Positions 3,404 through 63,297 of a stretch of 64,000 bases of DNA are shown piece after piece. This DNA comes from Ostreococcus lucimarinus. Lineage: Eukaryota. The position numbers and the translations under genes were made by a program. Where the stretch lies: NCBI GenBank assembly GCA_000092065.1, contig CP000593.1. One strand, 5' to 3'. Under the pieces are notes generated by a model. That model ran no database searches. It was not told where the DNA came from and was given only the letters and a program-made list of their open reading frames with translations. Position 1 is the stretch's first letter. The number at the start of each line of letters is the position of its first letter.

Positions 3404-4195
3404 TCACAGCGCGCTCTTTATGACGGCCGCCTCCCCGTCGCGACATCGCGCGTCCCACACCGCGACGCCATCGTCCGCGGCCACCGCGAACTCGGGCTCT
3501 CGACCGTACACTCGTCGCGCGACCTCGATCAAAATCATCGCCGTGAGCCCCCATATCGTGCGCCCCTCGTACTCAAAGTAATGGACGCGCACGGCTGGGC
3601 GCGCCCCGTTCGGCCGCGCCCAGTCGTCGTACCGGTGACGATCCGCGCTCAGAAACATCTCCAGCGGCGCCGTGAACACCTCCGCCACCTCCTCGCGCGA
3701 GATCTCCTCCTCGCGCACGCGAAATCCCTCCCGAACCACCCCCACCACCGGTCGCACGCTCACGCGATGCCTCGACATCACCACCGGCAACCGTCCCACC
3801 ACCTCCACGTCCCTCGGCGTCCGCATCCCGATCTCCTCCCGCGCCTCCCGCGCCGCCGTGCCCGCGTCGCACGCGTCCCGCGCGTCTCGCTTCCCTCCCG
3901 GCAGCGCGATCTCTCCCGCGTGCGATCGCATCGACGTCGCGCGCGTCGTCAGCGTCACGTCCCAACCGTCGTCCCCGCGCGCCGCGAGCGGGACGAGCAC
4001 CGCCGCGCGATCGCTCCCGCGCATTCGCGCGTGCGCCGCCGCGTCGCCGTCGCCGTCGCCGTCGTCGAACAGTCCGCGCAGCGCGTCCGCGCGGCGCGTC
4101 GGCATCGTCGACGCGCCGACGCGTCGCGACGTCGCGACGCATCGTTCCATCCGTCGCGCGCGCCGTCGATCGCGCGCGCGGCGCTTTTGTATCAC
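3404..4195 (-). CDS. Nudix hydrolase of the CoA pyrophosphatase (NUDT7/NUDX15-like) type
   Basis: Has the NuCoA motif LTTRATSMRSHAGEIALPGGK followed by the Nudix box (REAREEIGM). The true start may be an internal Met (M16 or M31). Confidence 0.75.
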   Translation of the reverse strand: MIQKRRARDRRRARRMERCVATSRRVGASTMPTRRADALRGLFDDGDGDGDAAAHARMRGSDRAAVLVPLAARGDDGWDVTLTTRATSMRSHAGEIALPGGKRDARDACDAGTAAREAREEIGMRTPRDVEVVGRLPVVMSRHRVSVRPVVGVVREGFRVREEEISREEVAEVFTAPLEMFLSADRHRYDDWARPNGARPAVRVHYFEYEGRTIWGLTAMILIEVARRVYGREPEFAVAADDGVAVWDARCRDGEAAVIKSAL

Positions 4196-4228
4196 CTTTT
4201 TCGTCGTACACAGTCACCGTTTCGCGCC
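4196..4228. promoter_or_regulatory. Ultra-short (33 bp) divergent intergenic region between the Nudix and SSIII start codons
   Basis: Follows from the two start-codon positions. It implies overlapping 5' UTRs or promoters. Confidence 0.4.
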
Positions 4229-7200
4229 ATGAGTGAAGTCGCGTCGCCGCCGGGTGATGCAAACACCCGGAAGCGCGGATTCGAACGGACGACCACAGCC
4301 ACTCGATCGCGACGCGCGCCATCGCGCGACGCGACGCGACGCGCGTCCAGCGCGCGAGCACGACGCGCGGTGAAACCGCGCGGTGATCCGAACAACCCGC
4401 GGTGCGCGACGCGCGACCGAGCGATCGGTGCGCGGCGTCGACGGCGATCGGCGAAGACGATCGCGGCGGACGGATCGAATCGGTTTTTCGAGACGCGCGC
4501 GCCGCGGGCGATCGAGGCGCGGAAGACGGACGGGATGGCGCGGACGGCGACGCGCGCGGTGAGGACGACGACGACGGGGGGGGGGCGGAGGCGCGGAAGC
4601 GCGGTGAGACGACGCGGGGGGACGCGGGGACGCGCGAGCGCGAACGCGGCGGATGAGACGACGGCGCGCGCGGACGCGGCGGCGGCGGTGCGAGATCTGG
4701 CGAAGACGCAGTTGAACGGCGCGGATGGGCCGAGGGTGTTTACGGTGCCGGCGGTGCCGGTGGCGGGGGCGCCGGTGAGGGTGTTCGCGGACGTGGAGCG
4801 GGCGGACGCGTTGCGGTCGGCGAGCGAGCGCACGCTCGTCGGCGGGTACAACCAGTGGAAGATTGGGTCGTTCGAGAAGGCGATGGAGCGGGTGGAGGGG
4901 ACGAGCTGGGTGTACGTCGACGTTGACGTCGATGAGCGGGCGTACGAAATGTCTTTCGTGTTCAGGGGTGACGGACAGGCGTATGAAAAAGACGAAGGCC
5001 AAGATTTCGTCGCGGCGGTCGACTTCGGGCCGACGCCGGAGGAGTTTGTGGAAATCCTAAAGGTGGTCGCCATGGAAGACGCGGCGCGCGCGGATGCGAA
5101 CGCCATAGTCGACGCTGAAATGGCGTTCGCCCGCGATGGCGTCGCGGGCGTCGGGGCGACGTTTGAAAAGTACGGGCGCCTCATTTGCAAAACCTCCACG
5201 GGGGACGCGGGCGTCGCCGGTAGCACGGAGCGCGTCTTCTGGAACAAGGCACTGAACCCTATTGGCGGTGACGACGCGGAGAAGCTCATCATGCACGTAG
5301 GATTTAACGGTTGGATGCGTGGCGTTGAGGAGAAGTTGACGCTCGTTCGCGCGACGGGCGAAACGAGAGATGAAAATAACGACTGGTGGGTCGCCGACGT
5401 CCCGATTCGTCCTTCGGCGAGCGTGCTCGACTTTGTCATCTCGGACGAGGACGAAATGGCTTGGGACAACAACGAGAACGCGGACTACCGACTCGCCATG
5501 GACGTCACGTCCGACGAGTCCACGTGGGAGGTCTTGCGAGAGCTCACATTCGAAGAAAAACGCGCGGAGGCGCTGCGAGCTTTGGTTGAGGAAAAGCAGC
5601 GCGTCGCCCGCCGCGCGGAGGAGGCCGCGGCGGCCAAGGCGAAGGCTATTGAAGTGGGCTTGAAGCAGCAGGCGTTCATCATTCACACCGAACCGAAAGT
5701 TCCCGAGGTGGGCAAGCCGCTCAAGGTCTTCTACAACAAGAACAACACCCACCTCAACTGGAGCGAAGAAATTTACTTGACTGGCGGCTTCAACCGTTGG
5801 GCGCACGAAACCGCGGTGGCGCCGATGAAAATGACGCCTCCGACTGAGGGCGAAGAATTTTTCTCCGCCACCGTGCCGAGCGTACCGTCTGACGCGTGGA
5901 TGGTCGACTTCGTCTTCAGCAGTGGCGTTGGCGAAGGTGCGCAGTATGATAACAAGGGCGGACGTGACTATCACATCCCGACGCGCGGAAGCGCGGCGAA
6001 AAAGCCGCCTCTGCACGTCGTGCACGTCGCGGTGGAGATGGCACCCATCGCCAAGGTTGGCGGTTTAGCCGACGTCGTCACCGCCATCGGTCGCGCCATT
6101 CAAGATAATGGACACTTAGTGGAAGTCATTCTTCCGAAGTATCAGTTTTTCAACAACTCAGTCTTGCTCGGCGCCAGAGAATACGAAACGCACTTCGATT
6201 GGGCGGGCACGACGATTCGCGTCGAAAAGTGCAAGGTGGAAGGCTTGCAGTGCTTCTTCATCGAGCCGCAAAACGGCATGTTCCAGACCGACTCGGTGTA
6301 CGGTAGAAACGATGATGCTGAGCGTTTCAACTTCTTCTGCAACGCTGCGCTCGAGTTCCTCCTTCGCACGGCTCGTCAGCCGGATATTCTTCACTGCCAC
6401 GACTGGAGTTCGGCAGAAGTCGCGCGAGCTTACTGGGACCACTACCATCACAATGGTTTGACCAAGCCAAAAGTGGCGTTCACGATTCATAACATGAACT
6501 ACGGGCAAGCCAAGCTCGGTGAGGCCGTGCACCACTCACAGATGACGACCACGGTTTCGCCGTCCTATGCGGGTGAAGTCTCGGGCAGCCCGGTGATCGG
6601 AGGCAACGGCGGCAAGTTTACCGGTATTCGTAACGGCATTGATCCCGACATTTGGGACCCCGAAACGGATGCATTCGTGCCGGTCAAGTATAACGCCGAG
6701 AACGCTGAAAAGGGCAAGGCAGCGGCCAGGGCTGAGCTTCGCAGTCGCCTCGGCATGACTGGTTGGGACGACAAGCCCATCGTCGGCGTCGTCTCTCGTC
6801 TCACCGCTCAAAAAGGTGTACACCTGATCAAGCACGCCGCACATCACACCATCAGTCGTGGTGGGCAATTTGTGTTGCTTGGTAGCGCGCCTGATCCCAA
6901 AATTCAAGGAGATTTCAACGGTCTCGCCAATCAACTCGCCGGCGACAACTCTGGTTTCTTCTTCGCGTTTGACGAGCCGTTGTCGCACCTCATGTACGCT
7001 GGTTGCGACATCATCTTGGTCCCGTCTATGTTCGAGCCGTGTGGTTTGACACAGATGATTTCCATGCGCTACGGTGCTGTACCTGTCGTTCGTGCCACTG
7101 GTGGCCTGCGTGACACCGTCTTCGACGTCGATAATGAAAAAGAGCGCGCGGCTTGGGAAATCGCCGGTTCCACCGACTGGGAAAAAGATGGCGACATGAC

Positions 7201-7390
7201 GAACGGCTTTAGCTTCGAAGGGACCGATGAAGGTTCGCTCAACTACGCGCTCGATAGATGCCTCGATGCCTTCTACAACGATCGCGTGTGGTTCCGTTCG
7301 CTTCAAAAGCGTTGCATGCTCCAAGACTGGTCCTGGAACAAGCCCGCGCTCGAGTACGAAGAGTTGTACTTCAAGATGCTCGGGCAATAA
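4229..7390 (+). CDS. Starch synthase III with three N-terminal CBM53 starch-binding modules and a GT5 catalytic domain
   Basis: Carries the KVGGLADVVTAIGRAIQDNGHLVEVILPKY motif (the KVGGL form typical of SSIII/IV). The three CBM53-like modules include LKVFYNKNNTHLNWSEEIYLTGGFNRWAH. The C-terminal half has SMFEPCGLTQMISMRYGAVPVVRATGGLRDT. The six-frame ORF runs from 3581, but its first 216 codons overlap the Nudix gene on the other strand, so the first non-overlapping in-frame ATG at 4229 (MSEVASPP) is taken as the start. Confidence 0.85.
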   Translation: MSEVASPPGDANTRKRGFERTTTATRSRRAPSRDATRRASSARARRAVKPRGDPNNPRCATRDRAIGARRRRRSAKTIAADGSNRFFETRAPRAIEARKTDGMARTATRAVRTTTTGGGRRRGSAVRRRGGTRGRASANAADETTARADAAAAVRDLAKTQLNGADGPRVFTVPAVPVAGAPVRVFADVERADALRSASERTLVGGYNQWKIGSFEKAMERVEGTSWVYVDVDVDERAYEMSFVFRGDGQAYEKDEGQDFVAAVDFGPTPEEFVEILKVVAMEDAARADANAIVDAEMAFARDGVAGVGATFEKYGRLICKTSTGDAGVAGSTERVFWNKALNPIGGDDAEKLIMHVGFNGWMRGVEEKLTLVRATGETRDENNDWWVADVPIRPSASVLDFVISDEDEMAWDNNENADYRLAMDVTSDESTWEVLRELTFEEKRAEALRALVEEKQRVARRAEEAAAAKAKAIEVGLKQQAFIIHTEPKVPEVGKPLKVFYNKNNTHLNWSEEIYLTGGFNRWAHETAVAPMKMTPPTEGEEFFSATVPSVPSDAWMVDFVFSSGVGEGAQYDNKGGRDYHIPTRGSAAKKPPLHVVHVAVEMAPIAKVGGLADVVTAIGRAIQDNGHLVEVILPKYQFFNNSVLLGAREYETHFDWAGTTIRVEKCKVEGLQCFFIEPQNGMFQTDSVYGRNDDAERFNFFCNAALEFLLRTARQPDILHCHDWSSAEVARAYWDHYHHNGLTKPKVAFTIHNMNYGQAKLGEAVHHSQMTTTVSPSYAGEVSGSPVIGGNGGKFTGIRNGIDPDIWDPETDAFVPVKYNAENAEKGKAAARAELRSRLGMTGWDDKPIVGVVSRLTAQKGVHLIKHAAHHTISRGGQFVLLGSAPDPKIQGDFNGLANQLAGDNSGFFFAFDEPLSHLMYAGCDIILVPSMFEPCGLTQMISMRYGAVPVVRATGGLRDTVFDVDNEKERAAWEIAGSTDWEKDGDMTNGFSFEGTDEGSLNYALDRCLDAFYNDRVWFRSLQKRCMLQDWSWNKPALEYEELYFKMLGQ

Positions 7391-10055: not shown

Positions 10056-12821
10056 ATGGGCAAGAAACGAAACGAATCGCGCGACGAACGCGTCGATGAC
10101 GACGCCGACCACGACGCGTGGCTGCGCGACGACGAGTCGTGGCGGTCGTTAAGCGTGAACACCAACGCGCTCATGCTCGGGGCGCAAGAAGAAGGATTCA
10201 TGAGTTTGGAAGTTTTGGACCCGTCGGCGGCGAGCGACTACGCGAAGACAAACGCGTCAAACGGCGACGCAAAGGGAACGACGAAGAAAGGTGAAACGAA
10301 AGCGAAAGCGTCAATGAAGAGCGATGGTGATCGAGCGAAGGCCAAAGCGGGGAAGAAGAAGGCTTCGAAGAAGTCGAATGAGAATTCGACGACGACGGCG
10401 GTGCCGAGCGCGTTAGCGGCGCTGGACGAAGCCGCTCTGGAGGGCTTGTCGGGGAAGGAGGCGCGAATTATGAAGAGAAAACTGCGCTGGAAGGCAAAGA
10501 TCGAGGCGAAGAAAATAGCGAAGAAGAGTGGTGCGGTGGCGGTACCGGCGGCGAAGAAGAACAGTGGTGACGGCGTTGCCATCGTGGACGACGCGCCGAC
10601 AACGTCTGGCGCGACTCAAGCTAAGAAGAAGAAGGACACGAAAGTCACAGAGAAGAAAGAAAACAGAAAGACTTTAGTGAAACCGGATGAAGAGCTCGTT
10701 GCGGATGCAGCATTGGACGTGGAAGAGGATTGGGAAAAGATTACACACAAAAAGGTGGCGGCGAAAGATGCGCCGATGAATAAGGCGTCGACGGCGAGTG
10801 GTTTCGATTACAACAAGCACCCGACATCAGGAATGAGTGCTGTCGTCGATGGCGTGGATTTAGATCGTGGTTGCGACGTGAGTGCATGGTTTGAGTTTGA
10901 TTTACACCCGCTCATCATGCGCGCGATTCAAGATTGCGGTTTTACCACGCCAACGCCTATTCAGCGCGAGTGCTTGCTACCGGCGACAAAGGGTCGATGC
11001 GATATCATCGGTGCGGCGCAAACGGGGAGTGGGAAAACTTTAGCGTTTGCGTTGCCTATTTTGCAACGCTTACTTTCCCAAGGTATCGGTTTACCCGAAG
11101 GATACGCGACGAAAGAGGAAGAAGATTCAGAGCAATTGCCAGACGTGCTTCGAGCACTCATCGTCGCGCCCACGCGCGAATTAGCGCTCCAAGTCTGCGC
11201 CATGATGCGCGCAGTCGCGGTGTACACGAAAATTGACGTATGTCCTGTCGTTGGTGGGATGTCGAAGGAAAAGCAAGAACGACTTTTGAATAGGAAACCG
11301 GCAGTCATCGTCGCCACGCCTGGGCGGATGTGGGACACAATGCAAAGCGGCCACGAGCACTTGACCGAACTCAGCGCGCTTTCGTTTTTCGTCCTCGACG
11401 AAGCCGATCGTATGGTGGAGCGAGGTCATTTTAGCGAGCTCACGAGCATCATTCAGAACATCCCGCAGCCGCCGCGCATCAAGCGTCCGGGCGGCGCCGC
11501 AAAGCTCACTAGCGTAGAACGCGAGGCTGCGGGGGCGACGGATGCGTTCGCTGAGGACACGGAAGAGGATGATAAACAGAAAGTGTTAGCCCTGCGCCCA
11601 AAGCAGATGCTTGATCGACAAACATTCGTCTTCAGCGCTACGCTCACGGTTCCGGATTCTGTGCGCAGAAAGTTGAAAAAAGGTAAGGCGTGGACGTCGA
11701 AACGTCCGGCATCCATGAGCGGAAAGCCGCAGAGCGGTTCTTTAGAATCACTCATGGAGGCTGTTCCGTTTTACGGGCGTGTGAAAATGGTCGATCTGAC
11801 CACAAAAGAGCGTAAAGGGGGTGCCGTGGCGAAATCAATCGCGGAAAGTGCGCTGGAGTGCACCGAGGACGATCGCGACTCGCTGTTGTACTATCTCCTC
11901 TCGGCGCATCCCGGGATGACCATCGTCTTCGTCAACGCTATTTCATGCTTGCGTCGGGTCGTGGCGCTTTTGAAGATTCTTCGCGTGCCCGTGGAAGGGC
12001 TTCACGCGGGTATGCAACAGCGTGCTCGTTTGAAGGCGCTCGATCGATTCAAAGCCGCTGCGGCGGCGGCGGACAAGGGCGATCGCCACGCGCACTCGGT
12101 GCTCGTAGCCACCGACGTCGCCGCACGAGGTCTCGACGTCAAGGGCGTGGAACTGGTCATTCATTACCAAATCCCACTCAGTGCGGACACGTATATTCAT
12201 CGAAGCGGCCGCACTGGGCGCGCGGATAAGTTGGGCGCGGCGGTTTCCTTGGTGACGCCGAAGGATCGCGCGCGATATTACTCGCTGTTGAAGTCTCTCA
12301 ACCGCGACGGACCATTAGACCCGTTCCCGATCGCGGAAGAGACTTTGACCGCCGCGAGCAGACGTTTAGCCGTGACGCGTAAGATCGACAAGCTGTCGCA
12401 CGCGAAGAAGAAGGCCAAGGCGGACAAGGAGTGGCGCAAGACGAACGCCGAGGAGCTCGGCATCATTCTCAGCGAATCCGAGTCCGACGAAGATTTACAA
12501 GAGTACCAAGAAGACCAAAGCGCCAAGAGCACGGCTGCGGCAAACGAGCGCAAGCTTCGCGCTGAACTCGATGCCATGATCGCCATCCCGCTCGGCTCTC
12601 ATCGTCACTCCTTGATCGGAAGCGCGAAATTCCCCAGTCGCGGCGGCGGCGACGCGTTGCTCAAAGCCAAGCGCGCGCGCGCTCGAGACGAATCCAACGT
12701 CTCCGCCGTCGCCATGCTCAACGGCGACAAATCCTCAAAATCTCAGCCTTTACCCGCCGCAATCACCGGCGCCATCGCCGGCGGCGCTCGCGGCAAGCGT
12801 CGCAAGACCAAGAAAATGTAG
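10056..12821 (+). CDS. DEAD-box ATP-dependent RNA helicase, DDX24/MAK5-like
   Basis: Q-motif/motif I (TPIQRECLLPATKGRCDIIGAAQTGSGKT), motif Ia (APTRELALQV), motif II (VLDEADRM), motif III (SAT) and motif VI (HRSGRTGRA). The lysine-rich N-terminus and the long insert between DEAD and SAT are typical of DDX24/Mak5. Confidence 0.85.
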   Translation: MGKKRNESRDERVDDDADHDAWLRDDESWRSLSVNTNALMLGAQEEGFMSLEVLDPSAASDYAKTNASNGDAKGTTKKGETKAKASMKSDGDRAKAKAGKKKASKKSNENSTTTAVPSALAALDEAALEGLSGKEARIMKRKLRWKAKIEAKKIAKKSGAVAVPAAKKNSGDGVAIVDDAPTTSGATQAKKKKDTKVTEKKENRKTLVKPDEELVADAALDVEEDWEKITHKKVAAKDAPMNKASTASGFDYNKHPTSGMSAVVDGVDLDRGCDVSAWFEFDLHPLIMRAIQDCGFTTPTPIQRECLLPATKGRCDIIGAAQTGSGKTLAFALPILQRLLSQGIGLPEGYATKEEEDSEQLPDVLRALIVAPTRELALQVCAMMRAVAVYTKIDVCPVVGGMSKEKQERLLNRKPAVIVATPGRMWDTMQSGHEHLTELSALSFFVLDEADRMVERGHFSELTSIIQNIPQPPRIKRPGGAAKLTSVEREAAGATDAFAEDTEEDDKQKVLALRPKQMLDRQTFVFSATLTVPDSVRRKLKKGKAWTSKRPASMSGKPQSGSLESLMEAVPFYGRVKMVDLTTKERKGGAVAKSIAESALECTEDDRDSLLYYLLSAHPGMTIVFVNAISCLRRVVALLKILRVPVEGLHAGMQQRARLKALDRFKAAAAAADKGDRHAHSVLVATDVAARGLDVKGVELVIHYQIPLSADTYIHRSGRTGRADKLGAAVSLVTPKDRARYYSLLKSLNRDGPLDPFPIAEETLTAASRRLAVTRKIDKLSHAKKKAKADKEWRKTNAEELGIILSESESDEDLQEYQEDQSAKSTAAANERKLRAELDAMIAIPLGSHRHSLIGSAKFPSRGGGDALLKAKRARARDESNVSAVAMLNGDKSSKSQPLPAAITGAIAGGARGKRRKTKKM

Positions 12822-12916
12822 ACTTCGCCGCGATTCGCGCTCTCATCAATGCACGCGTCGCCGTCATCTCATCGCCTCGCGCGCGTCACACCTCGCCGCG
12901 TCTCGCGCCCGACCGC

Positions 12917-13565
12917 ATGCCGTCGCGATCGATCGACGATTTCTGCCACCTCCCGCGCGACCTCGCGCCCGGGTCGATCGGCGCCGACGTGCACTGCCTG
13001 CAAAGACTCCTCGTCCGGGAAAAGTTTTTGAAACGCGGCGCCCGAGCCGATGGACGATACGATGCGAACACGCGCGACGCCGTCAAGGCGTGGGCGACGG
13101 CGAACAAGTGGGCGAACGTCAGTGGCGGCGTAGACTCCGCGATGCGGCGCGCGTACGGCGAGGTGCGTGATGGACGCGGACCGATGACGAACGACCGACC
13201 GACCGACCAGTTGGACCGAAGACTGACGAGACGACGGACGCGCGCGCGCGAGATAGGCGAACGATTACGCGACGACGTCGAGCGGACGGTTGGTGAACGA
13301 TTGCGCGAATGGGAAAAATGTCGATGGGTTGGCGTGCGTGGACGTGTGCGTGGAACACGGGGAGACGACGCAGTATTGTCAGACGAAGTGCGCGACGCGA
13401 GACGACGATAAAAAGTTTGCGTGCAGAGCGGCGTGTCAGGACGCGTTCGCGGGTGCGTGCGATCGTGCGTTTCCACCGACGAGCGAAGAAAATCGGGTGA
13501 AGTTTGAGGGGTGCTTAGAAAACATGGCGGCGGAGTGCGCGCGCTCGTGCAAGCGATGGAAGTGA
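12917..13565 (+). CDS. Small cysteine-rich protein with a peptidoglycan-binding-like (PF01471-type) domain; predicted exons 12917..13162 and 13257..13565 joined by a 94-nt intron
   Basis: Exon 1 carries GSIGADVHCLQRLLVREKFL...DGRYDANTRDAVKAWATANKW, which fits the PG_binding_1 pattern. The GTGCGT donor at 13163 lies in phase 0, and the ATAG acceptor ends at 13256. A CTGAC branch point lies about 22 nt upstream of the acceptor. Exon 2, in the other frame, adds a C-terminus rich in cysteine (VNDCANGKNVDGLACVDVC...CKRWK). Confidence 0.45.
13163..13256 (+). other. Predicted short spliceosomal intron (94 nt) containing a (GACC)4 microsatellite
   Basis: Donor AG|GTGCGT, CTGAC branch motif and TAG acceptor. 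It joins two ORFs in different frames into one plausible protein. Confidence 0.4.
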
Positions 13566-13727
13566 TGAAATCGTCGAGTCAAACGTGTAAATCGCGCGGC
13601 GTAGCCGGCTCTGGATTAACATTTTCACAACAAACTCGGTCGGCGTCGTCTCCCTAACGGCATCCTAACGGCTCATTCCTCGAGATTAATCGAGTTTCCT
13701 AGTCGCTCGTACAATTTCTAAATCTCG

Positions 13728-14090
13728 TCAGTCGTCGAACGCGCGCGCGGTCCGACGCGCGAGGCGCACCTTTTTCAACTCCTCCATGCCTTCTCGCAAC
13801 ACCTTCCTCTCCCCCTTCAGCGCCTCCAACGCCGCGCGCTCGCGCGTCAGCATCGCCTCAACCTTCGCCTCCGCCTGTTCGTTGTCCATCTTCACGAAGC
13901 ACTCCCCCATGAGCACGCACGCGTCGTCCTCGTCGTTGACCGCGAGCTCGGTCGAGGCTTCGTCCAAGTCATCGATCTGCTTCTCTTTGTGTTTAATCTC
14001 CGAGTTTATCTCGTGCGCGCGCGCGTTCATGCGCGAGAAGGCGCATATGCGCTGTTGGTCCTCCCACGTCACCTCCTTCGCGGCGCTCAT
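13728..14090 (-). CDS. PFDN4: Prefoldin subunit 4
   Basis: MSAAKEVTWEDQQRICAFSRMNARAHEINSEIK matches the PFD4 N-terminus (VTFEDQQKINKF...). The rest is the coiled-coil beta-prefoldin. Start set at the Met of MSAAKEV (ATG 14090..14088); the ORF extends upstream but has no homology there. Confidence 0.8.
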   Translation of the reverse strand: MSAAKEVTWEDQQRICAFSRMNARAHEINSEIKHKEKQIDDLDEASTELAVNDEDDACVLMGECFVKMDNEQAEAKVEAMLTRERAALEALKGERKVLREGMEELKKVRLARRTARAFDD

Positions 14091-14522
14091 GGGCGCGGCG
14101 AGGCGTCGTCTGGCGCCCGCGCGATGGTTGGCGCGAATGACCCGGGCGCGCGCGCAGCGCAAATCCAAGAGCGATCGGCGTAAAAAAAGTAACGCATCTT
14201 CAAGTCCACCTGGAGCGACGCACGCGTGAGTCACGGAGTTCACGACGCGGACGCGCGGCACGCACCTCCTTAACCACTCGGACACAGTGACCGCGTCGCG
14301 CGAACGTCACCGACGAGATTTGAACTCGCGCACGCATAGCGTAGTGGATATCTTTAATACGAAAGAATACTGCATAAATGCACATGTCGGCTTCAGTGCG
14401 TTCGCGCGATGCGATTTCGTTGATGTTACAGGTTGAATACGAAACCACGCGCGGGGCGTCGGACGATGCTCGACGAGAGCGCGGGGAGGCGTCGCGAGGG
14501 CGAACGCGAAAAGGGAGAAGCG

Positions 14523-16853
14523 TTACAATTTCGCGCCGCACTCGTAACAAAACTTGAGCGCGACGGCGCCTACGGGATGGTTGAGCGCGCACGCGCACGC
14601 GGGACACGAAATAGACGATGATTTTGCGACGTGGTTTTCCTTGAGCGGATCTCGCGCGTCGGCGGCGACGGCGTCGAACGCGAGCGCCTGGTGACGTTGC
14701 GACTGTTGCGCCGCCGCCGCCGCGCGCGGACGCGCGATGGCGTCGCGCTCGATGATCGAGGACGATGTCGTCGTCGCCGTCGAAGGTTTGCGTATACCGA
14801 GCGCCAAGAAAGTCTTCTCCCTGCGTTCTTCGATCTGTCGCTTGCGTTCGGCGCGACGCTGCGCTCTCGCGTCCTCATCCGTTTCGCTGATGAGCTGACG
14901 GAACGACTTCTCACGCGCCTCGGCGTCTTCGACGACGTTCGATCGACCTATTCTCGGTAGAATGGTCGCCGCCGCGGCGTTTTGATCGAATTGCGACATC
15001 GCGACGTCGATTGATTTCGAAAACGTCTCGATGAGGAACCCTTCGACGAGGGCGTCTTGTTCGCCAACACGACGAGACGTCGGATTTGACACGCTGGATT
15101 CGTTCACGTCCATCAATCTATCCGCGATATCGTCGAATCGTAGCGCGTACGCGTGCGAGGCGGCGGTATTCGTAGCCTTCGTCGCGCCGGGATCGACGCG
15201 AATGCCGACGCGCGTCGCTTCGCCGCCGCGATCCCATCGCCGCGCATACGCGGCGTACGCATCGCCTTCGCTCGATCTGGTCCCACGCGACGCCGCAGCG
15301 ACGGCGGAAAAGATTTGCGAGCTCTTCACGGCACCGATCTCGGGCGAGATCGCTTCGTCGAGCGGTACCAAATTCGGTTCGGCGTCTTTGTACACGTCTT
15401 CGTTCACGTCTTCGACGACGTCTGCGTCTTCCACGATATCCTTGAGCTTGACGCTCTGTCGAGCGCTGAGTAAACCGAGCGCGTGATCCGCTTCGTCTAA
15501 TGCGTTTTGACGTGCGAGTGTGCTCATGTTGTCCATCGCGACGTTGACTTTGTTCAACCCACTCGCGCCCGCGCTCGCGGAGAGACGCCGCAACAATTCG
15601 GGCACCGTCGCGAACGCACGAAGATGAAACTCTAACCCATCGGCACCGCGGCGCACGGGATAGAGCAGCATCGGCGTAGCGTCGAGTTGTCCGTCGCTCG
15701 ACACGTCGCGGTACTGACGCCGCGCCGCCGTGCCGCTCATCCATTGAGTCTTCACTACCATCGCCGGGACGTCGCCTGGCGTCGGCGCGTCCGCGAACGC
15801 CGCGCTCCACGACGAAAACAACGCCTCGCGCACGTCTCGCGACTCCGGGACGTCGTCCATGCGCACGCACAGAGATAACGTCGAGCTCAAGTACACGCTC
15901 GGGATGTCGCGCGCGCGCACAATTTCCACCACGCGCAACGCGCTCGCTCTAGGCGGCGCGGGCGCGGGCGGTCTCGGCGCCGAGCTCGTCGTCGCCGTCG
16001 CATCCATCGTCTCCTCCTCCCCATCATCCGCGCTCGCTCGCGGCTGCAAACGCGTCGCGCGTAACCCGTGAATTTCTACCCTATCTTTCCCGCTCGACGA
16101 CGCGAACGCCAACGTTCCTCGCCACCGCTCGCCCAAATCCACCGTCTCGTCGTCGCCGACGTTTGAAATCGACGCCCCCGCGGCGTCCGCCACCGCTCGC
16201 GCCATCTCCGACCCCCCCCCCTCGCCGCACAGCACCACGCGACACCGCGCGAACGTCCCGAAGCACGCCTTCGCGCGTCGAAACACGCCGTACGCCGCGA
16301 CCATTCCCGTCGTCCACGCCGCGCCGCGTTTAAAATCGCCGACAGCCGCCGCGTTCGGCGCGAACCAAATCACATCCACCCACACCCCTCGCTCGCGATT
16401 CGCTCGCTCCATCGCCCCGCACGCGCTCGCCGCCGCCTCCTCCGCGCTCGCGCCGCGTCCGCCTTCGCCGTTTTCCCGCGACAATTCAATCCTCGCGTCT
16501 CGCAGCGTCTCCCGCAGCGTCTCCGCGTCGACCCCCGTCGTCGTCTCGCTTTCCCGCCCATCGCTCGCGAGCGCGCGCGCGATCCCGGTCCCCCACGCGC
16601 GCGCGACGTATCGCGCTCCCCTCGACGCCGCGCCGAGGCCGTTCGCGCGCAGCGCGTCGTCGTCGTCGTCGTTCGCGCGCGTCGTCCGCGTCGCGCACCC
16701 ATCGTCGTCGTCATCTTCCCCGTCCCGCATCGCGCGTTCGCACGCCGCGACGCCGTCGAGCGCGTCGATCGCGTCCGCGCACCACCGCGCGCTCGCGGCG
16801 CGCGCGTCGAGGTCGCTCGCGGCGTCGCCGACGAGCGCGACGACCAAACGCAT
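14523..16853 (-). CDS. Hypothetical 776-aa protein with a possible vWA/Rossmann-like N-terminal region and a C-terminal C4 zinc ribbon
   Basis: Long ORF with non-repetitive composition. The N-terminus [15 protein letters not shown]...[10 protein letters not shown] is Rossmann-like. The C-terminus has a CPACAC...(16 residues)...CYEC zinc ribbon. I cannot name a family. Confidence 0.5.
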
Positions 16854-56307: not shown

Positions 56308-57954
56308 ATGGCGAGCGCGCTCGTGCCGAAACGGCGACGGGTGGCGACGGAAAACGCGATGACGAAGCTGAGTGGGAACGGGGAGTCGTGCGCACTGTTT
56401 AACTGTAACTATTGCCAAAAGGACATCTCGAACGTGGTGCGCGTACGGTGCGCGGAGTGCGCAAACGTGGATCTGTGCACGGAGTGCTTCGCGGTCGGCG
56501 TGGAGCCGCACCCGCACAAGGCGTATCATCAGTATCACGTCATCGACAACATGTCGTTTCCGCTGTTCACGCGAGATTGGGGGGCTGACGAAGAGTTGTT
56601 ATTGCTGGAGGCAGTGGAGATGTTCGGGTTGGGGAACTGGACCGAGGTGAGCGAACACGTCGGGACGAAGACGCGCGCGCAGTGTCACGCGCACTATTTT
56701 GAAGTCTACGTCAAGTCTCCTTGCGCGCCGTTACCGGATATGTCGAAGATTTTAGGAAAAGGCGTCGCGCGTATGACATCAGACGAGCTCAAAGCGGAGG
56801 CGGAGCAAAAGGCGAACGAAAATAAGGATGTGGAGGAGGAGGAGAAGCTTCTCGAATCGCTTGCTAACCCGAACGCAGTGAAGACGGAGGGCAACGTGCA
56901 GGAACTCACAGGTTACAACATCAAGCGCAATGAGTTCGATCCCGAATACGACATGGATGCCGAACTTCCCCTGGCGGAGATGGAATTTCGCGAAAACGAC
57001 ACCGAAGAAGACGTCCAGATGAAGCTGCGAATGATTGAAATCTACAACAGCCGGCTTCAAGAACGAGCGAGAAGAAAACAATTCATTCTCGAACGCAATC
57101 TGCTGAACGTGAAAAAGCAACAAAACGTGGAAAAGAAGCGTTCACAATACGAGCGCGACTTACACGGCACCATGCGTATATTTGCACGCTTTCTCACGAG
57201 TACCGAGTACGACGTCTTGCTCGAGGGTCTCGCCGCGGAGCACCGAATCCGAACCCGCATCACCGAACTGAAAGAGTACAGACGCAATGGTATTCATACC
57301 ATCGCAGAGGGCGAGGATTACGATTTGGAGAAGCGTCGTCGTGAGACGGAGTTCGCTCGTCTACACGCGATCGAGCATCCAACTAGCAAGAACATAGCCA
57401 GAGCGAACAAGTTCATCGTGCGAGATGCCACACAAATCAATGAGCAGTTGACTCGCATGAACGACGAAGACAAGACGGTATCCGTGATCCCGACGCCTCG
57501 TACGTCGAGCTTAGGTCCTCGCCGTCGAATGTACTTGTCACTTGATCTCGCCGATCTTCCAGGCGTAGACCTTTTGAACGACGACGAAAAGGAGTTGTGC
57601 AGGAGCTGTCGCTTATTGCCTGTGCAGTATCTCTCGATGAAGGTGGAGTTGATGCGAGAGGGTCTCAAGTCCGAAAAGCCGCTCAACAGAAATCACGTTC
57701 GGAATATGTTCAAAGTAGACCCACTCAAGGCTATTCGTGTGTATGAGTTACTCCTACAGCACGGCTGGGTGTTGGAAGACGGCTTCGTGAACCCAGGTGA
57801 GGATGAAGACTCCGAACCTGCGCCGAAAAAGTCAGCCAGCGCAGACGAGGAGGAAGACGAGGAGGACGATGAAGTAGATTACGAAACCGACGATAACGAC
57901 GAAGACGAGGACGAGGAAGACGACGAGGAAGAGGATAGCGAGGAAGACGATTAG
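56308..57954 (+). CDS. ADA2: Transcriptional adaptor ADA2 (ZZ zinc finger, SANT/Myb and SWIRM domains)
   Basis: ZZ finger CNYCQKDISNVVRVRCAECANVDLCTECFAVGVEPHPHKAYHQY. SANT domain WGADEELLLLEAVEMFGLGNWTEVSEHVGTKTRAQCHAHY. C-terminal SWIRM-like region LLNDDEKELCRSCRLLPVQYLSMK. Acidic tail. Confidence 0.85.
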   Translation: MASALVPKRRRVATENAMTKLSGNGESCALFNCNYCQKDISNVVRVRCAECANVDLCTECFAVGVEPHPHKAYHQYHVIDNMSFPLFTRDWGADEELLLLEAVEMFGLGNWTEVSEHVGTKTRAQCHAHYFEVYVKSPCAPLPDMSKILGKGVARMTSDELKAEAEQKANENKDVEEEEKLLESLANPNAVKTEGNVQELTGYNIKRNEFDPEYDMDAELPLAEMEFRENDTEEDVQMKLRMIEIYNSRLQERARRKQFILERNLLNVKKQQNVEKKRSQYERDLHGTMRIFARFLTSTEYDVLLEGLAAEHRIRTRITELKEYRRNGIHTIAEGEDYDLEKRRRETEFARLHAIEHPTSKNIARANKFIVRDATQINEQLTRMNDEDKTVSVIPTPRTSSLGPRRRMYLSLDLADLPGVDLLNDDEKELCRSCRLLPVQYLSMKVELMREGLKSEKPLNRNHVRNMFKVDPLKAIRVYELLLQHGWVLEDGFVNPGEDEDSEPAPKKSASADEEEDEEDDEVDYETDDNDEDEDEEDDEEEDSEEDD

Positions 57955-61431: not shown

Positions 61432-63297
61432 CTAATTGATGGCTGGCGAAAGTTGCGGGTTCGCGAACTTCGGAAGTAAAACGTCGTCGATTTGCTCCGC
61501 CGTGCCCATGTCTCTGACGAATTTCCAGAACGCGACGAAAATGCCGGGAAGTGTTCTGTATGACGAGTAAGGAATGCCCATCTTCGCCGCTTCTTCCGCG
61601 ACAATTTTCGCGATCGCGGGGTAGTGCACAAAGCAAATCGCCGGGAACAGGTGATGCTCGACTTGCAAGTTCAGACCGCCGGTGAAAAAGTTTCCAATCT
61701 TTCCACCCCAGTCAGCGCTAGTCACCAACTGCTGCACGCCCCAATCTCTTTCCCACGCCTCTCCACCGGTATCTTCAGGGAGTTTGGCCTCGGGCACGTT
61801 GTGACTCACCGCGAACGTACACGCGAGGACGACTCCTTGGCACGCCATGAAACCGACGATGCCGGCGACGACGGCGGAAGCCGCGTGGCTCATCAAAGGT
61901 GCAGCCAACAAACCGAAGTGCACAAACTTGCCGATAACTACGGTGGCAAGTTCCCAAGTGGTCGCCCCGTGGAGCTTTGCGCCTTCGGTATCGCGAGTGA
62001 ACAAACCGACGATGTCGCCGACTTGGAACGCCACCTGCAACAACGGAAAGGCCAAGAACATGTACCAGTGCTGGAAGCGGTGGTACCACGCCTTGGGACG
62101 ACGAGCGTCGAAACGCAAGAGAGGCATGGCGGTGTACACGTCTTGATCCATAGCATTGTCGTTGCAGTGAATGTGGTGGCTCACCTGGTGGTGGTATCGC
62201 CACATCAAAGACGAGCCGCCGATGAGATCGTTCGTCAAACCGAGGACGCCGTTGACGGCGGGCGACGGTGACATCGCCCCGTGATTGGCGCAATGCTGAA
62301 TCGTGAGCCCGATCCACGCACCAGCTAAGCCAAGGAGGCAACCCGAGAGAAAGCCCGGGATGGTGGCGTACACACCGTACGCAAACGCGGCGAAAGACAA
62401 AATCGTTATCGTCGCGTGGTCGCCACCCATTCTGTGTTTGTTCTTCCCTTCTTCCGGGAAAAGTTCCTCGCGAACGCGATTGCGGATGTTGTTGTACAGC
62501 GGCGAATCGTTCGGTCTCGGTGACTTCGCCACGGCGTCGACCGGGAACCCCTCGAGCTTGGGTAACATCCTGAAGCGCGCCGTCGCCACCTCTGGTCGCA
62601 AGTGATAGGATTCCATGAGCGCCGTGCAGTCGCGACCGATGGCGAGGTTCAACAACCAGTTCCCGCCCGGATGCTTCTCAAAGAACGGTCCGAGGTCGTA
62701 CGCCACGTCTCGAAACACCGTCCACTTCACCTTTTGCCACTTCTCATCGTTCCACGGATCCTCCATCCCCGGCGCCGCGACGTCCGGGCGCGGCAACCTC
62801 AGCGCCTCGCGTCTCGCCTCCAGGGACATCATCTTCTCCCCCTCCTCGCCCTCGACGCTTCTTTCGACGACCGCGGCGTTCCCTTCGCCCTCGATCGATC
62901 GCGGAACGATCGCATACCTCCCCGATCGCGCGCGCCGCGCGTCCGCGCGCACCGCGCTCGTCGTCGCGCGCGTCGTCGTCGCTCGACGGCGATAATCACA
63001 CCTCGCGCTCGACGTCGTCGTCGTCGCGAACGCGCGCGCGACGGTGCGCATGGCGGGCTCGATCGCTCGGCGCGGATTCGTGGCGTTCGGATCCGTCTCG
63101 GGCGCTTCGCGCGTTCGGGCGTTCGAGCGCTCGCTGTCCCGGACGCGCGCTGTGACGAGCCGACGCGACGACGCCGACGCGACGACGCCGCGCGCGGATC
63201 GGATCGCGTGACGTCGGTCGGGGCGCGTCGGGCGTCGAGGGACTCGTTCTCGAGTCGAGACTCGTCGATGGGATCGGTGTGGTCCGTGTGTATCCAT
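61432..63297 (-). CDS. Front-end fatty-acid desaturase with an N-terminal cytochrome b5-like domain, preceded by a long transit-peptide-like extension (alternative start at 63051)
   Basis: b5-like domain VFRDVAYDLGPFFEKHPGG. Histidine boxes HCANHGA, WRYHHQVSHHIHCN and QVEHHLFP (the Q-x-x-HH box is diagnostic of front-end desaturases). Several TM helices. The first ~150 codons are S/R/T/A-rich. Confidence 0.85.
   Translation of the reverse strand: MDTHGPHRSHRRVSTRERVPRRPTRPDRRHAIRSARGVVASASSRRLVTARVRDSERSNARTREAPETDPNATNPRRAIEPAMRTVARAFATTTTSSARCDYRRRATTTRATTSAVRADARRARSGRYAIVPRSIEGEGNAAVVERSVEGEEGEKMMSLEARREALRLPRPDVAAPGMEDPWNDEKWQKVKWTVFRDVAYDLGPFFEKHPGGNWLLNLAIGRDCTALMESYHLRPEVATARFRMLPKLEGFPVDAVAKSPRPNDSPLYNNIRNRVREELFPEEGKNKHRMGGDHATITILSFAAFAYGVYATIPGFLSGCLLGLAGAWIGLTIQHCANHGAMSPSPAVNGVLGLTNDLIGGSSLMWRYHHQVSHHIHCNDNAMDQDVYTAMPLLRFDARRPKAWYHRFQHWYMFLAFPLLQVAFQVGDIVGLFTRDTEGAKLHGATTWELATVVIGKFVHFGLLAAPLMSHAASAVVAGIVGFMACQGVVLACTFAVSHNVPEAKLPEDTGGEAWERDWGVQQLVTSADWGGKIGNFFTGGLNLQVEHHLFPAICFVHYPAIAKIVAEEAAKMGIPYSSYRTLPGIFVAFWKFVRDMGTAEQIDDVLLPKFANPQLSPAIN

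Follow-up and report, generated by a model that had tools for sequence, protein, structure and literature searches.

In bacteria and phages, PG_binding_1 domains (PF01471) are extracytoplasmic modules of cell-wall enzymes, as in the N-terminal domain of SleB (6tci), a Zn DD-peptidase (1lbu), CtpB (4c2c), phiKZ gp144 (3bkh), the AP3 endolysin (5nm7), and an L,D-transpeptidase (4lpq). The usual eukaryotic home of this Pfam family is the pro-domain of the matrix metalloproteinases. In the green lineage, the Arabidopsis protein pTAC5 (AT4G13670) combines a peptidoglycan (PG)-binding domain with a DnaJ C4 zinc finger and has disulfide-isomerase activity (PMC4080259). In this study, we analysed a 64,000-nucleotide (nt) stretch of the genome of the alga Ostreococcus lucimarinus CCE9901 (assembly GCA_000092065.1, contig CP000593.1; hereafter the window) and characterised a single-intron nuclear gene at 12917..13565, which encodes a PG_binding_1 domain followed by a cysteine-rich domain of a kind not represented in Pfam. 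The product is a member of a small, Viridiplantae-restricted, and functionally uncharacterised family of 174-193 amino acids (aa), in which the PG_binding_1 domain is joined to a C-terminal domain with ten conserved cysteines. Taken as a whole, the reading that this is a spliced, two-domain, orphan-family protein that is held together by disulfides and follows the MIA40 route is in our estimate the best explanation, with a probability of roughly 0.55.

The gene appears in the window as two open reading frames (ORFs), 12917..13411 (164 aa) and 13290..13565 (91 aa), which lie on the plus strand in different frames. Exon 1 (12917..13162, plus strand) comprises 246 nt, or 82 codons, encodes residues 1-82, and ends in phase 0 with the codon GAG; it is colinear with the four independent transcript-like contigs L001 and L004-L006. 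The spliceosomal intron (13163..13256, plus strand; 94 nt, GTGCGT...TAG) is missing from all four, and exon 2 (13257..13565, plus strand) encodes residues 83-184 followed by the stop codon TGA at 13563-13565. Joining of 13162 to 13257 thus gives an open product of 184 aa. In the JGI contig L001, nt 1-470 correspond to window 12694-13163 and nt 471-636 to window 13258-13423; because G13163 and G13257 are the same base, the intron is placed at 13163..13256, with GT-AG borders. The Logan contigs L004, L005, and L006 have the identical 94-nt deletion, and the flanks of the gap match the window exactly. At the protein level, the JGI protein P0001, which was retrieved with the spliced query and comes from contig L001, is identical across the junction (...RRAYGE|ANDYATT...), and the exact 184-aa product (P0008) is encoded on the Logan assemblies SRR28369099, SRR28369223, and SRR28369158. 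All four contigs also lack window 13720-13771, which is equivalent to a 52-nt GT..AG intron on the minus strand (13718..13769) in the neighbouring prefoldin gene. As two introns on opposite strands have been removed at canonical borders, the contigs derive from spliced RNA. Therefore, the proposal of the initial annotation that the two out-of-frame ORFs are one spliced gene with the junction 13162^13257 is borne out to the nucleotide. Upstream of Met12917 the contigs are colinear with the genome, with no further splice. The transcript contigs depart from the window by single bases at 13424, 12862, 12636, and 12352; the difference at 13424 is common to all four contigs and is synonymous, the products being identical. 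On account of these differences, the sampled environmental Ostreococcus populations are nearly, but not exactly, the reference strain.

The splice signals named in the initial annotation are also present. They are the donor GAG|GTGCGT at 13162/13163, the TAG acceptor ending at 13256, and a CTGAC motif at 13223..13227 (plus strand), whose A (13226) precedes the acceptor by 30 nt and which is, from its sequence only, a candidate branch site. The CTGAC motif recurs in the intron of the orthologous locus L002 and in the neighbouring 52-nt intron. As statistical evidence, however, the splice motifs were dropped, since the pattern GTGCG[TC]..CTGAC..YAG occurs nine times in the window (both strands) and the mean in block shuffles is 9.0, so that the count is not above chance. 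Support for the gene model therefore comes from the transcripts and from conservation, and not from the motifs.

A GT..AG intron is found at the same codon boundary, right after the Y-[GA]-E codon, in five Mamiellales lineages, namely that of the window and four others represented by genomic contigs. Its length is 94 nt in the window (length mod 3 = 1), 78 nt in L002, 57 nt in L003, and 81 nt in L007 (length mod 3 = 0 in all three), and 107 nt in L008 (length mod 3 = 2). The intron sequences have diverged while both exons are conserved across the five lineages, which places the gene under clear purifying selection in Ostreococcus and Bathycoccus. The contrary view, that there is no gene here and that the 164-aa and the 91- or 75-aa 'proteins' deposited by prokaryote-style gene callers are two unrelated chance ORFs, can point to the storage of the halves as separate entries (P0038 from 155 contigs, P0123 from 30, and P0212 from 294). 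However, it is already refuted by the spliced transcripts. In addition, the read-through tail of the 164-aa ORF is without homologues beyond near-identical strains, and orthologues as far apart as ferns and prasinophytes can be aligned with the spliced product along its entire length. We therefore see practically no chance that it is correct.

The size of the family is small even in very large collections. An exhaustive phmmer search of 1.84 billion cluster representatives with the exon-2 product as query gave only 28 matches, with the tail alone matching other family members at E values of 1e-5 to 1e-7, and profile searches gave 24 matches for the tail and 33 for the N-terminal domain. Every full-length tail match also carries PF01471, in the same two-domain architecture. 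Members include proteins from Klebsormidium nitens (GAQ79273.1 / A0A1Y1HMN8, 193 aa), Prasinoderma coloniale (A0A7R9TVS4, 174 aa), Myrmecia bisecta (KAK9813310.1, 175 aa), Tetraselmis striata (185 aa), Picocystis salinarum (182 aa), Chloropicon roscoffensis (WZN60266.1, 187 aa), and Chloropicon primus (QDZ23494.1, 188 aa), as well as from the ferns Ceratopteris richardii (KAH7425250.1, 182 aa), Pteridium (186 aa), and Adiantum (fragmentary or partial entries of 137 and 235 aa). A 135-aa protein of Closterium sp., the sequence of which was not inspected, matches the N-domain profile only. The named members are annotated only as hypothetical or as 'Peptidoglycan binding-like domain-containing protein'. 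The window protein is 29-37% identical to the proteins of Klebsormidium, Prasinoderma, Ceratopteris, Myrmecia, and the two Chloropicon species, and its 184 residues align over the full length with those of Klebsormidium, Prasinoderma, ferns, Myrmecia, Tetraselmis, and Chloropicon.

All 12 cysteines of the family are present in the window protein (Cys10, 27, 109, 113, 123, 127, 138, 142, 150, 168, 176, and 180). In the family they lie in the motifs C-[YH]-[FL]-x-R-D and GGDV-x-C-L-Q of the N-terminal domain, followed in the tail by C-x-D-V-C, C-x-T-[RK]-C, A-C-x-x-x-C-Q-x-A-x-x-x-x-C-D-R-A-F-P, and C-L-x7-C-x3-C; the window protein has CHLPRD and CDRAFP as its versions of the first motif and of the CDRAFP segment. 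The Mamiellales copies differ from the other members in having a single phase-0 intron where the two domains meet, the linker ANDYATTSSGRLVND instead of AK[RK]HKLPxP, and Phe or Tyr instead of His before Cys138. The tail phmmer, tail-profile, and N-domain-profile searches gave no member from angiosperms or mosses, and no relative was found among viral contigs, so there is no prasinovirus link. Literature searches on algal PG_binding_1, Ostreococcus PG-binding, and plastid PG-binding proteins gave no paper that describes the family. The initial annotation had called the fusion of the two domains unusual. The fusion itself is real, but the architecture has been conserved in lineages ranging from prasinophytes to ferns, and UniProt and NCBI already carry automatic annotations of it for other species. 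The most fitting place for the window gene is as an orthologue within an existing, unstudied database family.

The N-terminal PG_binding_1 domain (12980..13150, plus strand; residues 22-78) is genuine and of bacterial type, in agreement with the initial annotation. In Pfam it scores 26.4 bits, above the gathering cutoff of 23 (E 7.7e-6; profile positions 2-55 of 57), and 19 of the 34 family members match PF01471, the best with an E value of 9.9e-14. When the family N-domain profile was compared with PDB sequences, bacterial and phage PG_binding_1 proteins matched at E values of 4.6e-7 to 6.6e-5, and the core G-x-x-G-x-D-V-x-x-L-Q ... G-[YF]-[YF]-G-x-x-T-x-x-A-V is common to them and to the window protein. 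Outside the family, the nearest relatives of the domain in the profile search are small PG-binding proteins of candidate-phyla-radiation bacteria. An AlphaFold2 model built from a 34-sequence alignment has a mean predicted local distance difference test (pLDDT) score of 90.8 and a predicted template modelling (pTM) score of 0.87; it supersedes an earlier run on a nine-sequence alignment, in which the pLDDT was 63 and the tail was unreliable. The model places helices at residues 23-34, 50-62, and 74-84, as a predicted three-helix bundle that is superposable on solved PG-binding domains, and packs both domains of the protein as one compact globule. In contrast to the bacterial and phage proteins, the window protein has neither an enzyme domain nor an export signal, adds two conserved cysteines (Cys10 and Cys27, which flank or enter the domain) and a novel cysteine-rich partner domain, and occurs in a host without a PG wall. 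With the matrix metalloproteinase pro-domains it shares the Pfam family and the three-helix topology, but it lacks both the PRCGxPD cysteine switch and a Peptidase_M10 domain.

The second domain (13335..13562, plus strand), delimited by the family alignments A3 and A4 and by the AlphaFold2 model, holds Cys109, 113, 123, 127, 138, 142, 150, 168, 176, and 180. The 10-Cys module described in the initial annotation is thus a conserved cysteine-rich module with ten family-conserved cysteines, although the tail ORF has 11 cysteines and the whole protein 13; Cys98 is an extra residue of O. lucimarinus that is not conserved in the family. In the model, a β-hairpin (108-116 / 120-128) is followed by helices at 131-153, 159-169, and 172-179. 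No Pfam family matches the tail at E<=10, the tail profile has zero matches among PDB sequences at E<=10, and a fold search against known structures gave no match. A match to ADAMTS_CR_3 in one family member (E 0.0035) was judged spurious.

The positions of the cysteines, read against the DSSP boundaries of the model, are highly regular. In the modelled β-hairpin, Cys109/Cys127 and Cys113/Cys123 would be cross-strand partners, and both pairs sum to 236. In the helical hairpin that follows, the pattern C-x3-C-x7-C ... C-x7-C-x3-C is perfectly mirrored (138+180 = 142+176 = 150+168 = 318), and the segments C138-C150 and C168-C180 are without gaps in family alignment A4. The protein contains no CxxC; its close cysteine pairs are all of the Cx3C type, with four CX3C motifs. 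Such a register and geometry, together with the lack of CxxC, fit disulfides and not tetrahedral metal sites, and from the model we consider it probable that the 12 conserved cysteines form six disulfides. The tail geometry would accommodate five of them (109-127, 113-123, 138-180, 142-176, and 150-168), and a Cys10-Cys27 bond would staple the N-terminal extension to helix 1. The residues that stand in for lost cysteines in the family alignment are Tyr, Phe, Met, Gly, or Ala; neither His nor Asp occurs at these places. Tetraselmis and Myrmecia both lack Cys109 together with Cys127; however, as only two of the six loss events are paired, covariation of losses was too weak to serve as proof of disulfides and was set aside.

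The same features bear on the possibility that the protein is a cytosolic or nuclear metal-binding or redox protein, whose cysteines bind zinc or act as redox thiols in functional analogy to pTAC5. The lack of a targeting sequence in every member is the default signature of a cytosolic protein, several members tolerate single cysteine losses, and pTAC5 is a green-lineage precedent for the union of a PG-binding domain and a cysteine-rich module that acts in thiol/disulfide chemistry (PMC4080259). Indeed, pTAC5 is the closest characterised architectural analogue of the window protein, by analogy and not by demonstrated homology. However, pTAC5 is targeted to plastid nucleoids and has a C4 DnaJ-type zinc finger, whereas the window protein appears from its composition to be without a transit peptide and has neither CxxC nor CxxCxGxG; PF00684 (DnaJ_CXXCXGXG), the DnaJ zinc-finger family, does not match it even at E<=10, and pTAC5 is not among the N-domain profile matches. 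Judging from the model, same-strand cysteines i/i+4 would be about 13 Å apart, which is wrong for one tetrahedral site, and cross-strand partners would be at disulfide distance; the mirrored 4/8 - 8/4 spacing is also typical of disulfide zippers. We therefore regard a cytosolic metal or redox function as unlikely.

Where a disulfide-bonded protein of this kind would reside depends largely on its N-terminus. Met12917 is the first in-frame ATG, GTG, or TTG after the upstream in-frame stop, and only nine hydrophilic residues precede the conserved domain. A composition and hydropathy check covered 15 full-length members, namely the window protein and 14 orthologues taken from genomes and transcriptomes. 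In all of them, the leader that precedes the C-[YH]-[FL]-x-R-D motif is hydrophilic and 5-21 residues long, and the Kyte-Doolittle maximum for 11-mers stays below 2.0 anywhere in the protein. On this basis, no family member is predicted to have a signal peptide, transit peptide, or membrane segment, and the 184-aa product is predicted to be soluble. Leaders this short and hydrophilic leave no room for a transit peptide, and they contradict the description 'small secreted' in the initial annotation. Classical secretion of a small cysteine-rich protein that binds bacterial PG outside the cell, for example in alga-bacteria interaction, would agree with the usually extracellular nature of small disulfide-rich proteins and the normally extracytoplasmic position of bacterial PG_binding_1 domains. 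Nevertheless, the hydrophobic segment needed for it is lacking in the window protein and the 14 orthologues, complete transcriptome ORFs included, no alternative in-frame start lies between the preceding stop and Met12917, and the transcript contigs show no upstream splice that could supply one; this makes secretion highly improbable.

The initial annotation had also hinted at a link to the PG of plastid division. Under such a scenario, the protein would be a plastid-envelope or PG-remnant factor with a part in plastid division or in the biogenesis of the envelope, where its ligand would be PG, a muropeptide, or an intermediate resembling lipid II; the Ostreococcus copy would be a relic. The bacterial type of the N-terminal domain and the presence of the family in ferns, Klebsormidium, Closterium, and several prasinophyte classes are in its favour, as some of these lineages keep the PG pathway or show PG-dependent plastid division (PMC4815162; see also PMC3398972). 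One paper even claims PG-like material in angiosperm envelopes despite reduced gene sets (PMC9954125). However, DDL and MURE are all that is left of the PG pathway in Ostreococcus and Bathycoccus (PMC4815162), which nonetheless keep the gene under purifying selection, so that a plastid wall is an improbable ligand in Ostreococcus. In addition, the composition check gave no transit peptide in any of the 15 members, and the searches described above gave no angiosperm or moss member. The link to plastid-division PG is therefore weak, and we consider a plastid-envelope factor of this type improbable.

Among the individual proposals on location, our tentative preference is that this presequence-less, disulfide-stapled protein of about 20 kDa is a MIA40/ERV1 substrate of the mitochondrial intermembrane space. 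This is favoured over each single alternative, but is itself no better than a possibility on the model and the composition. Oxidative folding by MIA40/ERV1 would import and oxidise the protein in the intermembrane space, and in this or any other compartment the PG_binding_1 surface would serve to bind a partner protein or a soluble ligand, not a PG wall. Like the known MIA40 substrates, namely the small Tims with twin CX3C motifs and the CHCH proteins with twin CX9C motifs, the window protein is small, has no presequence, and contains several CX3C motifs, and its mirrored cysteines across a modelled helical hairpin would imply a disulfide zipper. In contrast to them, it matches Tim or CHCH proteins in neither sequence nor fold, it would have three disulfides in the helical hairpin and not two, and it has an extra PG-binding domain of 85 residues. 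An O. lucimarinus Mia40 homologue, XP_001419132, has been reported (PMC3097184), which shows feasibility only.

Several observations weigh against the MIA40 interpretation and the disulfides on which it builds. The first four-cysteine unit is modelled as a β-hairpin, and not as the helix-loop-helix of twin-CX3C MIA40 substrates; a helical twin-CX3C hairpin for these four cysteines had been considered and was rejected for this reason. To our knowledge, no mitochondrial role has been described for a PG-binding fold. Many members come from lineages that keep plastid PG synthesis (ferns, Klebsormidium, and Closterium), which would fit a PG-related ancestral role. Finally, four of the six cysteine losses are unpaired (P0124, P0080, P0070, and P0069), some of these being metagenomic ORFs that may hold errors. 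A broader form of the proposal would see the family as an unrecognised class of presequence-less, disulfide-zipped organellar intermembrane-space proteins, reaching either the mitochondrial intermembrane space with the help of MIA40 or the lumen of the plastid envelope by another route, in which a bacterial PG-binding fold is joined to a new 10-Cys fold as a remnant of envelope or muropeptide recognition that outlived the PG wall in Ostreococcus. We hold this wider generalisation to be distinctly unlikely.

The neighbourhood of the gene is also shared among Mamiellales. The order found in the window, with a DDX24/MAK5 helicase, the PG-binding gene, and a convergent prefoldin gene, recurs at least in L003, and the prefoldin neighbour is found in L002 and L007 as well. 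The prefoldin gene (13673..14090, minus strand; Prefoldin_2 in the orthologous loci) lies downstream, with its ATG at 14090 and stop at 13673-13675, and encodes 121 aa when spliced. Its 52-nt intron (13718..13769; GTGCGC...CTGAC...TAG), near the 3' end of the gene, is the one removed in all four contigs, and splicing gives the C-terminus ...ELKKKLYERLGNSINLEE in place of the read-through ...VRLARRTARAFDD. The spacers are short, with 95 nt separating the helicase stop codon from the ATG of the PG-binding gene and 107 nt between the two convergent stops, and single contigs (L001 and L004-L006; window 12250..14135) span the 3' end of the helicase gene, the PG-binding gene, and the antisense prefoldin gene. 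The transcripts of these neighbours probably overlap, and for this reason the 5' end of the PG-binding mRNA cannot be read from these contigs. An out-of-frame ATG at 12849, 68 nt upstream of the start, opens a 60-codon ORF (12849..13031, plus strand) that overlaps the start of the gene; it would be an overlapping upstream ORF if transcription begins upstream of 12849.

The division of the gene into two halves has consequences for annotation. The unspliced 164-aa ORF and the 91- or 75-aa exon-2 ORF are stored as separate proteins (P0005, P0038, P0044, P0123, and P0212), of which P0038, P0123, and P0212 account for split entries on hundreds of marine metagenome contigs. Some of the split entries have been auto-named 'peptidoglycan hydrolase-like protein', and in the 164-aa entries the C-terminal 82 residues come from translation of the intron and of exon 2 in the wrong frame. 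The homologues that we found include no NCBI RefSeq, UniProt, or EukProt entry from any Mamiellales genome, and the gene may be missing or mis-modelled in the Mamiellales reference annotations. Elsewhere in the window, the product of the ORF 56308..57951 (plus strand) is identical to XP_001422948.1 of O. lucimarinus CCE9901 (a transcriptional adapter, listed as 'predicted protein'). The long ORFs 3581-7387, 61435-63297 (minus strand), and 14526-16853 (minus strand) have no exact-sequence entry in the protein collection, which points to deposited models with introns or with different starts.

The gene model presented here thus corrects public collections that hold the two halves apart and sometimes under a wrong name, and it defines a compact orphan family of the green lineage, the C-terminal fold of which is absent from Pfam and PDB. 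Targeted gene insertion is established in Ostreococcus tauri, and the role of PG-binding folds inside eukaryotic cells therefore becomes a tractable question that is testable in this alga. What makes the question worth asking is that a bacterial-type PG-binding domain, without any predicted export or transit signal, has been kept under selection in algae that are unable to make PG.

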